Of a DNA stretch of 64,000 nt, positions 35,963-42,649 are shown piece by piece (within the stretch, counting starts at the first letter, position 1; each line of letters opens with the position of its first letter). The notes under the pieces are model-generated. The model saw only the letters and a program-made list of their open reading frames with translations, was not told the DNA's origin and did not search any database. The DNA comes from Pristiophorus japonicus (taxonomy: Eukaryota), in NCBI RefSeq assembly GCF_044704955.1, contig NC_091989.1:147498001-147562000 (forward strand), written 5' to 3'. A program made the translations under genes and the position numbers.

Positions 35963-36599
35963 TGTAAGGGGAAAATGGGAAGGCTTCTCCTCCCACAAGC
36001 GGGCCCCCTGATATAGAGGGTCGACGCTCGCCCCAACCCGCGTAACAGCCCCCAGAGTTAGCAGACAGAGACGAATGGCAAGGTATAACGATCTTTTATT
36101 GCGAACGTCCGGGAACACCTCTCATCACAGCCGCCTGTGAGTGGAGATGCTCTCCGAACAGCACAATCATACAACTTTTATACATTTCAAAAATCCCTCC
36201 GTTCCCTGGTAAGACCTCCCTAGATCTCTAATTGGACTACCTTATCAGTGCTACTTCTCTAATTGGACTACCTTATTAGTGCTACTTTGGATTGACAGGC
36301 CAAGACCCTCGTGACCACCTTAGGCCATGACTAGAATGACTTCATTAGGTCAGAATTTGTTGATTCTCCTTGATGCCCGTGAGTCTGCCTCGAGCCTCTT
36401 CGCAAGGTCTTATCAATGTCTGTTTAGGTTCTCACATCGTATCCTGTCGGAATATTATTGAATTAATAACTTCTGGAGCCTTGGTACTGGAATGTACAAG
36501 GCCAAAGAGAGGCCTTTTACGTCCTTATGGGTCGGTGCAGGAACCAGCACTTTAACCCTTGTCCCGCTGGTATCCCTAATGCCAAATGTTTCTCTTATA
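35963..36599 (-). repeat. 3' LTR of the env-carrying element (637 bp, with a ~30-bp internal tandem duplication)
   Basis: Direct repeat of 40691-41294. On the - strand: CCAAT boxes (~36230, ~36261), TATAAAA (~36176-36182), AATAAA (~36094-36099). Confidence 0.93.
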
Positions 36600-36612
36600 T
36601 TTCCCCCCTTTT
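36600..36612 (-). promoter_or_regulatory. Polypurine tract
   Basis: aaaaggggggaaa on - directly abutting the 3' LTR. Confidence 0.88.
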
Positions 36613-36745
36613 GGCCCTTGGCTATACGCCAAAGCTAGCCATATTTCCCGATAACTATCTCCCTGTAGGCAAGTTCCAGATCGGTCCATTCACCTGGGTG
36701 GCTATCTCCCAAGCTTTGGGACCTCCTGAGACCTTTCCCGCAGAG

Positions 36746-38200
36746 TTATATAAGGTAAGTCCTTCCTGTGGGACTGCTTAAATTTTCATCCCTTATGACC
36801 TTAATCATAGTGTGTGCCCTGACGTATTGTTTGGCCTGTTTAATTCGTGCACAGGTTAGCCCTACCAGTACCATCAGGACCAGGCCTTGTATTACTACAA
36901 GTGCATGTGATATAATTCTTATCCATGGGTGGATCTGAATATTAAGTCCAATGTTCCACAGTTTTGAGTACCAAGGCTGGTTGGCCAGCATCGCGTTAGT
37001 GTCTTTTTGTAGGTTTGTCTATTTCTTCCATCAGCTGGATATTGCACCAATCGTTCCTCACTTAATTCGGGTATCTGTTTTTCTTGTGGTTCCCATATTG
37101 CTTCCTTGTACCCTTCTCGGAGGGTATCCATGACCGTTCCGTGGATGATTTCCGTTGTCTCGGGATGTATGTGGTATCAATTTATGTCTATTTTTCCCAT
37201 GGGCCTGAAACAGAAGTTAGGGTTGGTGATGACACAGGGGGTGACTCCTCCCCTGGTCTTAATCGTCGGGTTGGCTACTCCTGTGCTCACGCACCAAATC
37301 TCCATTCCCTTGTGGAACAGTGATTTGTTTCGGAATCGTGTTCGAGAGGAGTGATACTCAGCATGCATCCGTTTGTTTGGTGGAATCTGAAATCATTATT
37401 CGTCATTTGTGGCGTACCTCGACATAAAATCACTTGATTATTTTTATAGTAATCGATTTGTCAATGCCTTTCGTACTAATTTAATTTTAATCACCGGTCT
37501 GGCAGGCTGATGGTAACGCAACCGAGTTTGGTTTCTTACTTCACCGATATTATCGATCTAGTATAAGGGGTTTCCCTTTGTTACATCATACTGTGGTATG
37601 GACAACACAAATCCGATCATATTCACCCGCCCAGTAATGCATCTGAATTTTGGCACCCATGTGTGACTATTCCTTCGTACCTCGCACGTGTTATTGTTAA
37701 GTATGCTGTTCGGGATCCAATCTGCTATGTCCCCATTCTGGAGTTGCTCCAAGTTATGTTGTACTTCACTTAATATCCAGGCCCCATACCCGGAGCAAAT
37801 TATCTCAGCTTGTAATCATTTAATTATGTCGTTTCCCATTGCGTGGATCTAATTTATTGTCTTGGCATGCTTCTGTAATGTATGGGCCACCTGTAACAGT
37901 TCCCCTTCCCCGCCATCTCCCAACCACACTTTTAGGGCTTGGTTATCCATGTCCCTCCCCAGTAAACCCCTCAAGATTTGCGTTAAGTTGTTAACCCGGT
38001 CGTCTATTGCATACAGGTCTATGGAATTCATCATCGTAACCCCCGCCGCATAACCCGTGCCTAGTGTTTCCAGTATTCCCCTTTTTGTTCGACCTTATCC
38101 TGTTCCCTTTCTGACATTAAATCTCAGGGTAATGGATTCCGGGCCTTCGAGGATTCTTTGTGTCAGGTTCTGGTATAGACTTATTTCAGAGACCTCCCTT
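36746..38200 (-). pseudogene. Envelope (class I fusion glycoprotein) pseudogene with an F-protein-like layout
   Basis: RTKR (38080-38091) then GILETLGTGYAAGVTMMNSIDL, heptad-like helix (AIDDRVNNLTQILRGLL), IICSGYGAWILSEVQHNLEQLQNG, IGFVLSIP..PLY..NIG, Cys-containing region, Trp-rich membrane-proximal QPWYSKLW, TM IISHALVVIQGLVLMVLVGLTC, short tail. Several stops and frameshifts. Confidence 0.85.
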
Positions 38201-40670
38201 GGTCTTCATTTTATCCCACTGGCCAGTTTTCCTAAACGTCCTGGGGTCCCACCCCCCTTTTTGCTCCGTTCTGTTCCCACCCTTTTGTTTCTTGTGGGGT
38301 GGTTTTGGCTGCTTGTTTTGCAGCTTTGTCCGTCCAGCTTTTAACTCTTGAATTCGTTTTGAGTATCTGTCTTTTATTTGTATCAGGCGAGTATTATTAC
38401 ATAGGCTAGTTCTGTTTTTATTTTTATTCTGACTATCCCACCATTTCCTCTATCTGTCAGGTGAGTCTTTTTTATTCTATTAAGAAATCCAAATTAATAA
38501 TGTCCAGTATAAAACAGCTGTCAATGGAAAGGGTTAACTCCCTTACAGGTTTGTAAGAAGGCCTGATGTCATTACGTGACTTTGCGTAATCATCCGAAAT
38601 TGTTTCCAGTCTTTGTGCCTTCAAAACTTGCTTAGAAATTAGGAATCTGTTAAAACAGCAGAAATCATTAGTAAAACCGTCATAATAAAAGTCTTATCAG
38701 GAAAGACGGCATTTTAGACTAAACTCCAATTTTTTTCTTAACTTCTAATTCAAGTACTTGATAAAGATTATTTTTTAATTGATTTAAAACGAGACCACAC
38801 ATTTTTAATAGCTATTTTGTTTACTGAAATCCAATTTTCACACAAGCTGTATACATTCCAAATTTCGTTTTTTTTTTACGGTCCCGTTCACTGGGCAAAT
38901 CTTGTATTTTATTTCTCTCTCAGCACAAAATCTAAACATCGGTGCCAGTTCCATTTTCTATAAGAATTTTAAAATTCAGTAAGATTCTCTAATTCCCAGT
39001 TTCTTTTCTTTCTGTGCTGAGTTCGCATAGCTTAGATCTTTTTTCCTCGTTATTTTCAAAACCCTCCTGCTTGTTTAGACTGTTCGGGACTTTTCTTGAT
39101 AAACAACGTCCATTTTGGAAATCTTTCAAACTGCAGTGAAACTTTCTCATAACTTAAAATCATTATCAATGGAGAGTGTCCCTTACCTCTTCAAATTCTT
39201 TTTTTTCAATTAAACCAATATCTTTTTCACAGCCGATATCAACTACTATTTAGCAAGTTATGTCTTTTTCCATCGCAAACACCCCTTTTTTTTGTCAGCA
39301 CCTATTTAGTACATTACGTCTTTTTTTAAGATCTCTTTTCTTCAAATTAGGTTTGTATTTTACATGGAGGGCTCCTGTCTGCGTAAATTTGTTAATTTAA
39401 AATCAGACGACAATCGAAGACACTTTTTCTTTCAAATTCATTCAATTTGTTTTCTTTCAAAGTTGCGTCTTTATCTTTTTTTCTTTTCTCCATAACTAGA
39501 ACGGAGTCTAGCACATAGGCTTTGAGGGCTGCTTTTCGTTATCTCAAATGTTCCAGTTTCAAGGTCGTTACAATGTCCTTTTTTCTAAACTGCTAAAGCT
39601 TGCCGTTTTAAATTTTTTTTTTCAAAAGTCCCTTTTACACCTTCACAGATAGCTCGCCACTCGTCCAGGAGTTTGACCTGATCCCTGAAGGTGTTTCTAG
39701 ATTGTTTCCAAACCTTTTAGTTCTTTTTCCTTTTTTTTTTAAAGAGATCAGATTTAATATATATTTTTTTTAGTTTGAATCCATCTCAGTATTTTGCTGT
39801 GCCTTCTCTTAATATCTCAAAATCCCAATTCAAATTTTGTAATGCCAATCTTTTATTTCCTAGCTCCGTAACTTATCATCCGAATAAATCCACACCTGCG
39901 TTTCTAACTTAAAGCTTCCTACATACAGGACAACACCAAACAGGCTTTCAGACACAAGAAAAATTCATTCCGCAGTCAAAAAAAAATCACACAAGGACTC
40001 TCACTCAACGACAGACATTTACAAAAGTCTCTTTTTATTCAACAAAGCTTATTCATTGTTTGGCCGGCTCTATTTTTTTTGGATCCATATGTCACTTAAG
40101 ATAGTCACTATCAGCTTTTTTATGGCATTACGTGGTTATGCAAGTTACAATTAATGATTGGTTTTATTCGCCTTTTTAATAGCCGTGTTACCCATCTTCT
40201 TCGGGGCTATGAGGGTCTTGGGCACTCCCTTTAATTCATGTTAGGTATGCAGGACGTTATTTATATCTATATGTCTTCCCTTGGCGCCGTACACTCGTAC
40301 TGCCACGCTTTGGGTCAATATATCCCGTCACTGCGGGGACGTCGTCTCCATGTCCTCAATCTCTCGTCCCTGCACCGTGTGCTCGTACCGCTTCGGGTCA
40401 ATAGACCTTCCTCTAGATCTTCCCTTGCGTCATACCCTCGCACTGCCGTGCTACCTCCATGCACGCATTTTAGGATGCACCTTTTGACCCCCTTCTACCC
40501 CTAGATCGTCCCTGTCCTCCGTCTCCATCCCTCCTGGACCTGCTACAAATGGTTCTTTGTACAGATGTCCTTCCCTTGCGGTTTACAATGCCACAGCTCT
40601 AACTTGAAGGTGGTAAATTAAAACATACTCACCCCAACAGCTGGGTCATTGTTCCGTTCGGGAAGTCCGC

Positions 40671-40688
40671 ACCCTGCTCGCAGCGCCA
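40671..40688 (-). promoter_or_regulatory. Primer-binding site, tRNA-Ser
   Basis: TGGCGCTGCGAGCAGGGT, 2 nt from the 5' LTR; complementary to the 3' end of vertebrate tRNA-Ser(UGA/CGA) as I recall it (about one mismatch). Confidence 0.85.
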
Positions 40689-40690
40689 AA

Positions 40691-41294
40691 TGTAAGGGGA
40701 AAATGGGAAGGCTTCTCCTCCCACGAGCGGGCCCCCTGATATAGAGGGTCGACGCTTGCCCCAACCCGCGTAACAGCCCCCGGAGTTAGCAGATAGAAAC
40801 GAATGGCAAGGTATAACGATCTTTTATTGCGAACGTCCGGGAACATCTCATCACAGCCGCCTGTGAGTGGAGATGCTCTCCGAACAGCACAATCATACAA
40901 CTTTTATACATTTCAAAAATCCCTCCATTCCCTGGTAAGACCTCCCTAGATCTCTAATTGGACTACCTTATTAATGCTACTTTGGATTGACAGGCCAAGG
41001 CCCTCATGACCACCTTAGGCAGTGACTAGAATGACTTCATTAGGTCAGAATTTGTTGATTCTCCTTGATGCCCGTGAGTCTGCCTCGAGCCTCTTCGCAA
41101 GGTCTTATCAATGTTTGTTTAGGTTCTCACATCGTATCCTGTCGGAATATTATTAAATTAATAACTTCTGGAGCCTTGGTAGTGGAATGTACAAGGCTAA
41201 AGAGAGGCCTTTTATGTCCTTATGGGTCGGTGCAGGAACCAGCACTTTAACCCATGTCCCGCTGGTACCCCTAATGCCAAATTTTTCTCTTACA
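40691..41294 (-). repeat. 5' LTR of the env-carrying element (604 bp)
   Basis: TGTAAG...CTTACA; roughly 20 substitutions versus the 3' LTR by eye. Confidence 0.93.
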
Positions 41295-42649
41295 CCAAGT
41301 ACAAAAAAGTCTTTGAGCATGTGCTCCAAATGTCCTTCAAATTCGCAATGTCCTGCAAGGCGTCTCAGCTCGGCGACATAACTCGCCACTTCCTCGCCTT
41401 CAGACCTTTTGTAGGTACCTACAAAAGGAACCGGTATCTCACCATCAGAACGCTTTCCTTCAGGTTCAAATGCTCTCGGACCAGTGTGCACAAATCGTCG
41501 TACGATTTCTCCATGGGTTTCGCTGGAGTGAGCAGATTCTTCATGAGGCCATACGTTGGTGCCCCACAGACGGTGAGGAGGATCGCTCTAACTTTGGCAG
41601 TGCTCTCTTCCCCATCTAGCTCATTGGCCACGAAGTATTGGTCAAGTCGCTCCACAAAAGTTTCCCAATCATCTCCCTCCGAAAATTTCTCCAGGATGCC
41701 CACTGTTCTCTGCATCTTTGGGTTCTCTATCTGTATCTTGTCGCCAGTTGTTGTGTATGGAGAAAGAGTCAGACTGAACACTGTGAGCTCAAAGTAAAGT
41801 GTGACCGTAGTCTTTTATTGCAGGTCTCCAGAGTGCCTCTCCAACCTGTGAAGCCTTTTTAAATAACTGTGCTCCCAAGTGATTATGGGATCCCTTGGAA
41901 CTCTGGGGAATGAGCCCTCTGGTGGCTGTACAGAGTAAATACAAGTCCACATATATAACAGTACCCACATCACCTTGAGAGCACCGGAGCTGCCAGAAGG
42001 ACAGAGCTGGTTACTCGGGGACAAAGGTTACGGGCTCGCCACCTGGCTTATGACCCCCACCACGCAAACCCCGCACTAAGACAGAGCGTCAGTACAATAT
42101 GTCCCACATAACGACACGTAGCATCACAGAGAGGACAATTGGTCTTTTAAAGCAGCATTTCCGATGCCTGGACCACTCTGGAGGCTACCTGCAATACCAT
42201 GTCATTCAGTTCACTGTCATGTGCTGCATGCTGCACAACTTGGCCATCATGAGGAGACAGGTACTGGACATTGAAGATCCTCCTGAGGGGAGAAGGAGGG
42301 ATGAGGATTTGAAGGAGGTTGACGAGGAGGAGGAGGACCAACAGTAGGAGGAGGAACCACCTCAAGCCGCAGGACGACGGCGGAGGAGGATGGGGGCGAC
42401 CAAGAGGACCTATAGCCATTGCTAGACACTTGCGTCAGTGGCTAATCCGTGAACGTTTTTCTGCCTGAAGGCTAAACGGCGGCATGTTTGATTATAGTGT
42501 TGCACCATGACTGTTTACACTTTGTTACACTTTTAATAATGTTGTGTTGGTTTCTGTTGATCTAATATATACTGTTGGTTAAATTCACAAAATAATGTGC
42601 TGATTCTGGTTAAATTAAAATAATAGGTTGATTAAACATTTGTACATTT

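Follow-up and report, generated by a model that had tools for sequence, protein, structure and literature searches.

The window analysed here comprises 64,000 nt of Pristiophorus japonicus DNA (GCF_044704955.1, NC_091989.1:147,498,001-147,562,000; all coordinates below are window positions). Its minus strand, which holds every feature described, carries at 41294-35963 an element resembling an endogenous retrovirus (ERV), inserted into the gag-protease frame of an older long terminal repeat (LTR) retrotransposon. We regard it as probable that this is a dead, non-autonomous copy of a shark ERV, likely copied in trans by a complete retrovirus (the helper) that likely belongs to the snakehead retrovirus (SnRV) clade and has an envelope predicted to be of class Ib. 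The 5' LTR (41294-40691, 604 bp) runs from TG to CA and carries CCAAT at 40961, TATAAA at 40908 and AATAAA at 40828, in the order that a preliminary description, made from the letters of the sequence, had reported. The TG..CA ends it had given to both LTRs apply to this one, whereas the 3' LTR (36599-35963, 637 bp) begins with TA and contains an internal 31-bp duplication. The two LTRs differ by 19 aligned mismatches (Kimura two-parameter distance 0.032); with the substitution rates that Han 2015 (PMC4422223) quotes for shark (2.2e-10) and for mammals (2.2e-9), the insertion dates to roughly 7-70 million years ago, an estimate with very wide bounds.

Two nucleotides after the 5' LTR, the primer-binding site (PBS, 40688-40671) complements, at 18/18 positions, the 3' end plus CCA of a genomic tRNA-Ser(TGA) (L080); tRNA-Ser was called at four of the six loci scanned. 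The leader then holds an ATG, five codons and two bases before the donor GTGAGT at 40632 (40649-40627), and the interior ends in a polypurine tract (PPT, 36612-36600) that is the same in sibling and helper copies. These signals are as first described, and so is the 5-bp target-site duplication (TSD) with one mismatch (cttgg at 41299-41295, tttgg at 35962-35958). Since L094, a further copy of the host repeat whose site is empty, reads CTTGG at this place, it is the 3' TSD copy that holds the change. The host gag/protease frame occupies 35957-35140 and continues at 41300-41814 (aspartyl protease, Pfam E 1.5e-5), with empty sites in L068 and L094. Repeats related to this retrotransposon also flank several other loci.

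The 4.09-kb interior is made up of pieces related to two retrovirus families of this genome, A (that of the helper) and B. The first codons of a family-A gag, with its MGN start, are cut short at 40207-40175. An AT-rich non-coding segment (40121-38405) is shared with pol-less family-B elements (83-93% identity to L112, 69-87% to L109) and has no match to the family-A helper above shuffles; at its end stands a gag remnant (38461-38380) with 74% nucleotide identity to the helper. A scrap of family-A pol, covering the C-terminal part of RNase H and the N-terminal part of integrase, lies at 38339-38253 (tblastn E ~2e-5; 87% nucleotide identity over 53 bp). The preliminary description, which saw neither reverse transcriptase (RT) nor integrase, had missed these short remnants and was right about the core domains: none was found in the interior, where three frames read through with X matched 0 Pfam families, and the same scan of the window copy with four siblings (15 frames) gave nothing relevant. 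The env lies at 38184-36746 as a broken remnant matching helper Env residues 238-730, with an RTKR site (38091-38080), fusion peptide, ectodomain and transmembrane helix, and is F-type by homology. It begins at residue 238 of a natural relative of 730 amino acids (aa) and holds six frame-breaking gaps and four stops within residues 271-700. The copy found in the window is no more than an inert relic.

A defective family and its complete relatives

The window copy is one of 41 defective copies sampled; 20 came from a DNA search with the env region, which found dispersed copies at 88-95% identity, 18 from a search with the AT-rich interior and two from among env protein matches. No match to gag capsid/nucleocapsid or to protease-RT occurs in any of the 41. 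Intact-length copies measure ~6.1-6.8 kb, the window copy being shorter through further deletions of ~620 and ~380 bp, and the TSDs of the 19 copies with both ends called are 4 bp in six, 5 bp in seven and inexact in six. The pol-less structure is common to many independent insertions with intact cis signals, which is the mark of a non-autonomous LTR element. From 192 exact genome-wide matches of a junction 22-mer that is present in 21 of 37 sampled copies, we estimate that the family probably numbers about 300.

By nucleotide matching, the element is a mosaic of two retrovirus families. It aligns with the family-A helper at 41294-40175 (78%), 38305-38253 (87%) and 38184-35968 (82%), and with the family-B element L112 over the AT-rich segment; between families A and B, identity amounts to 57-63% in RT and 32% in Env. 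The ~620 bp extra in the siblings consist of pieces of a family-B env, and the reading of this segment as a pol skeleton was ruled out, no colinear match exceeding shuffles. Recombination by template switching between co-packaged RNAs would be the likely source of the mosaic. Family A would have contributed the LTRs, leader, pol scraps and 3' part of env, and a pol-less family-B element the AT-rich segment and, in the siblings, pieces of a second env.

Searching at the protein level with a piece of env yielded 150 scored matches at 72-90%, and 18 of the 20 env-match loci fetched are gag-pol-env proviruses of 7.5-9.5 kb, mostly ~9.2 kb. Env and interior queries have in this way recovered both copies of the same structure and a full-length relative, and the earlier proposal of a non-autonomous shark ERV with a helper family is borne out. 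Helper Gag starts with MGN and has two CCHC knuckles; gag is followed by an in-frame TAG and then by RVP protease, RT, tether (RT_RNaseH_2), RNase_H and integrase. A 22-mer of the helper RT has 68 exact matches genome-wide and is present in 16 of 17 sampled helpers. Primer site, leader, PPT and LTR start are identical in type between helpers and defective copies, and env is 82% identical in nucleotides. LTR-LTR distances range from 0.015 to 0.045 in 18 pol-bearing copies and from 0.021 to 0.094 in 25 defective ones; because these ranges overlap, helper and defective activity overlapped. The helper TSDs are 4 bp in 2/14 and 5 bp in 10/14. Duplications of both lengths are mixed in the defective and the pol-bearing group alike (L031-L100).

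From the shared cis signals and the overlapping ages we infer mobilisation in trans. Transcription from the LTR would yield an RNA retaining primer site, leader and PPT, signals that are all present in the sequence, and helper Gag-Pol would package this RNA, prime on tRNA-Ser, reverse-transcribe it and integrate the product with a 4-5 bp duplication. Helper-dependent defective retroelements include those of the VL30, MaLR and LARD type. Like these, the window family has cis signals alone, is presumed to move in trans and outnumbers its helper; unlike them, it combines pieces of two retrovirus families whose relationship is distant. The pol-less Bhikhari retains an intact gag, whereas the window family is without any intact gene.

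The helper env frame has no ATG ahead of its hydrophobic leader. The leader ATG is kept at this distance from the donor (five codons and two bases) in 39 of the 59 loci scanned, defective and pol-bearing, and its phase matches that of an acceptor just upstream of the helper's hydrophobic leader. These features suggest that helper Env translation likely begins in the leader exon, with the leader ATG as the putative source of its start codon. In the defective family env homology starts at helper residue 165 or later (37/37 copies), so that acceptor and signal peptide are lost. Frame-breaking gaps recur at seven env places in 15-29 of the 37 copies (binned by 10 codons; some may be compensating pairs), and each defective env has 1-9 frame breaks as against 0-1 in 16 of 17 helpers. 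Private non-CpG changes in the defective envs are near neutral, with 259 nonsynonymous (N) to 93 synonymous (S) (35 of the 37 copies, two being left out for insertions or stray matches); helper env changes are 108 N : 47 S when private and 11 N : 29 S when shared (p 2.5e-6). The element is env-bearing, as had been claimed, in the sense of a remnant: with the signal peptide gone in every sampled copy and the frame broken, env in the defective family is a passenger.

Reverse transcriptase and envelope of the helper

The helper has the organisation of the Retroviridae: gag-pro-pol-env, with protease, RT, tether, RNase H and integrase between LTRs that are accompanied by a PBS and a PPT. Against the PDB its RT matches murine leukaemia virus (MLV) best (259 bits), then foamy virus (184) and Ty3 (123). 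RT trees of 42 and 33 rows, with no labelled SnRV or lokiretrovirus (Loki) sequence included, place it among retroviruses (100/100 against Gypsy outgroup rows), next to an eel protein at 50%, and outside the gamma/epsilon class I clade, so that it is not a class I ERV. This phylogeny, for which the preliminary description had called, sets the helper apart from gamma/epsilon and Gypsy. Spumaretroviruses have a Gag without CCHC, a pol that is not in frame behind the gag stop and a tRNA-Lys PBS, none of which fits the helper with its two CCHC knuckles, in-frame TAG and tRNA-Ser PBS. ERV4 Gag lacks a zinc finger according to Chong et al. 2014 (PMC4299795); the helper has two zf-CCHC. A search of viral contigs with the helper RT found no relative.

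In the supplementary alignments of Wang and Han, identities counted by eye over the RT amount to ~116/262 with SnRV (~44%) and ~82/255 with Loki-Pma (~32%). Helper and SnRV have LDIxNGFWxIxLEEE, PQGFHxSPGIFH and LQYVDDIL in common, and in RNase H GALEGxxSAQVAELVAL (by eye). We conclude that the helper likely belongs to the snakehead retrovirus clade, a placement that rests on sequence likeness judged by eye. The SnRV-like ERVs, which form clade Huo (Xu et al. 2018, PMC6001957), include CmiERV lineage I of elephant shark (Han 2015, PMC4422223). In the published CmiERV scaffold 2 (PMC4422223) the PBS is of tRNA-Ser type and exactly that of family B, and the RT stands close to that of a further sawshark family, C (by eye). 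Its transmembrane subunit is by eye of gamma type, with an immunosuppressive domain (ISD) and CX6CC, whereas the sawshark families carry an F-type Env.

Natural open env frames (716-786 aa) carry 5-12 sequons, a single furin site that one copy has lost and, where complete, a C-terminal transmembrane segment. The gamma-type marks ISD and CX6CC were found in none of six such frames, and there was no TLV_coat match. An unbiased genome-wide scan for PF00523 yielded four weak matches; numbers one and three are envs of related families, one of them scoring E 1.7e-6 (27.1 bits). Word-indexed homologue searches with Env returned 0 matches and then one. A profile search of 1.84 billion proteins returned 29, and the 10 looked up are all elasmobranch, from Pristiophorus, Mustelus, Heterodontus, Chiloscyllium, Scyliorhinus and Rhinoraja. 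Two UniRef proteins listed under Pristiophorus japonicus map to the genome analysed here at 99-100%, which fits that sawshark or a close relative as its source.

Helper Env residues 181-675 were modelled from 59 natural sequences, with a mean predicted local distance difference test (pLDDT) of 49.5 (60-72 in the beta-rich core) and a predicted TM-score (pTM) of 0.36; a single-sequence fold gave pLDDT 35 and was not used. Foldseek against the PDB ranks the F protein of respiratory syncytial virus first (E 4e-9), then those of human parainfluenza virus 3, Newcastle disease virus and henipavirus, and foamy Env, with 217 matches at E<=0.001; the rows listed are all class Ib proteins. The BFVD search gave 41 matches at E<=0.001 with lispi-, paramyxo- and baculovirus F at the top. 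VIA-align over 48,161 chains places foamy Env or paramyxo/pneumovirus F in all of its top 11 rows (Z 5.8-7.1; unrelated rows ~4). The alignments cover model residues 7-406, with 251-282 residues in 10 of the 11 rows and a root-mean-square deviation (rmsd) of 4.9-20.8. Class Ib fusion proteins are characterised by a three-domain core of F type to which both subunits contribute, and these alignments, of a low-confidence model, agree with that class. Since three structure searches and one sequence scan agree, helper Env is predicted to have an F-type (class Ib) fold despite the weakness of the model, in line with the mononegaviral rather than gamma-type Env that had first been proposed.

The top VIA match, 8rm0 (Z 7.1, rmsd 9.6 over 260 residues), is a foamy Env, which Fernandez et al. 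2024 (PMC11468914) treat as class Ib; foamy viruses differ from the helper in its CCHC Gag, read-through-type TAG at the gag-pol junction, tRNA-Ser PBS and single C-terminal transmembrane segment. The BFVD matches also include predicted Env structures of two walleye epsilonretroviruses, walleye dermal sarcoma virus (WDSV) and walleye epidermal hyperplasia virus 1 (WEHV-1) (A4GTG3, Q9WHI8; E 1.3e-5, 7.4e-5). These Envs are 1159-1317 aa long, against ~730-790 aa in the sawshark families, and their RT is of another clade. The matches suggest that exogenous epsilonretroviruses, too, may carry a class Ib Env; PMC3758190 describes their Env as structurally distinct and uncharacterised. SnRV Env is not among the BFVD matches listed, which is evidence neither way.

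Several points weigh against the account given so far. The fetched helper loci were mostly chosen for long open frames, a choice that biases helper age and the dN/dS ratio. The LTRs of the sampled helpers are just 70-78% identical to the window LTR over their full length, and env dS is 0.40 between helper and defective copies against 0.13 within the defective family; the direct helper may therefore be an unsampled sub-lineage. Env changes common to at least three defective copies show a weak synonymous excess (35 N : 25 S, p 0.02; shifted-frame controls p 0.32 and 0.61). Deep support in the RT trees is modest (84-91), and the step that separates SnRV from Loki was made by eye. The PF00523 score of 27.1 bits lies below the cut-off of 29.8 bits, the family matches just one of 59 aligned members, and profile searches of PDB sequences with Env (phmmer, hmmsearch) retrieved no F protein. 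The Env model is weak by its pLDDT and pTM and by TM-scores of ~0.3, its VIA scores stay below the tool's clear level of Z 8, and it represents the helper frame and not the window copy.

History of the envelope and competing readings

F-type Env has been published for Loki (PMC7947760) and for foamy viruses (PMC11468914), while orthoretroviral Env is placed in class Ia, separate from F (Fernandez et al., PMC11468914). Wang and Han favour independent env gains for lokiretroviruses and canonical retroviruses (PMC9040795), because the Envs they compared showed no similarity. The literature searched holds no report of an F-type Env in SnRV-like or epsilon retroviruses, although Calcraft et al. 2024, Hart et al. 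1996, Wang, Chen and Cui 2023, the follow-up on vertebrates that Chary and Hayashi announced or Repbase could already say so. The locus points to a radiation of shark retroviruses of canonical type whose envelope belongs to class Ib. With such a retrovirus, combining an F-type Env with natural open frames and occurring widely in elasmobranchs, structural comparison and trees of Env set against RT can test where retroviral env came from. It also follows that an F-like env alone cannot define a lokiretrovirus. We tentatively consider, at somewhat less than even odds, that the F-type Env is ancestral to retroviruses, kept in Loki, foamy viruses, the shark and skate snakehead-clade radiation and walleye epsilonretroviruses, with the gamma type a later replacement. 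Such an ancestry would go against the preferred model of independent gains.

Alternatively, a canonical snakehead-clade retrovirus might owe its env to a late, single recombination with a lokiretrovirus or an RNA virus. Env swapping is common (PMC3758190), and the gamma-type subunit read by eye in the published CmiERV implies that the clade holds two Env types. However, the genome contains at least four env families that are 22-32% identical to one another, and the RTs of three of these do not cluster tightly together; Env homologues occur in five other shark and skate genera; and the WDSV and WEHV-1 Env models match as well. The Env thus looks old and widespread, and we think late capture unlikely, if still a possibility to be taken seriously. 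It concerns the history of Env and is compatible with copying of the window family in trans by a helper.

That the F-like resemblance is an artefact, long helices and beta strands in a weak model finding each other, would agree with the low pLDDT, TM-scores and Z values; yet the number of PDB and BFVD matches at E<=0.001, the uniformly class Ib rows and the sequence-only PF00523 scan, which points to the same assignment, make this improbable.

Still less credible is membership of the lokiretroviruses, which the preliminary description had favoured and which would have made the element a non-autonomous Loki and the first Loki in cartilaginous fishes. Like the helper, Loki (PMC7947760, PMC9040795) have an F-like Env with an RXKR site, a fusion peptide and a weak PF00523 match, and a tether plus RNase H. 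The two transmembrane subunits share, by eye, the cleavage site and fusion peptide, G.IP after the long helix, F.L.iP, NvG, C..lCP and W.V.T, and pol-less Loki relatives such as Bhikhari exist. Tether and RNase H are common to all retroviruses and are not diagnostic; marks of Loki are an RT within a clade sister to retroviruses and an integrase whose nearest relative is CGIN1. The RT and Gag of the helper are of canonical retrovirus type: its RT reads PQGFHNSP and LQYVDD where Loki rows have PFGYxNSPAEFN and IYVDD, its PDB and by-eye affinities lie with MLV and SnRV, its RNase H motif is shared with SnRV, and its RVP protease, MGN start, two CCHC knuckles and in-frame TAG before pol go with these. 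No Loki Env was among the retrieved matches of the Env profile search, as far as the 10 looked up show. The Loki host list of PMC7947760 is without cartilaginous fishes; the supplement row for Orectolobiformes reads 3 and 0, the meaning of the columns being taken from the figure legend.

Equally remote is a functional env that let the defective family spread as an env-supplying satellite, a reading already largely refuted: the weak purifying signal on shared variants, and the open env of pol-less family-B elements, speak for it, but signal peptide and acceptor are gone in every defective copy, the frame breaks are recurrent, shared and far more numerous than in helpers, and recombination with helper env, to which the signal is best put down, can account for it (the defective L067 adjoins the helper clade in the env tree). 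The pol-less family-B elements in question, L109-L112, have open env frames of 640-764 aa with dN/dS 0.10-0.23 (chosen for open frames), interleave with pol-bearing copies by env distance and are possible env-carrying satellites in their own right.

Family B also includes very recent insertions: L101, L102 and L106 (for example L101:446-9874) have 100% identical LTRs, 5-bp TSDs and open frames for gag (~470 aa), pol (~1180 aa) and an F-type env (741-750 aa). Family C (L139-L142, L113-L124; 124 scored matches) has an F-type env and a long pol-env gap, and its RT groups with a Latimeria protein. An RT at L144, tried as that of a family D, was rejected, as it belongs to a neighbouring Gypsy element. 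At L125:1462-3819 (G000:C18:30.167-30.170 Mb) an open 786-aa F-type env stands behind a decayed integrase, with no LTR pair found in the fetched stretch; it shares 45% identity with P0160, a 739-aa open protein of Chiloscyllium, and is a candidate host-captured env gene. At L109:476-3861 lies a ~58-bp tandem satellite with GT runs, in which a family-B element has its insertion site.

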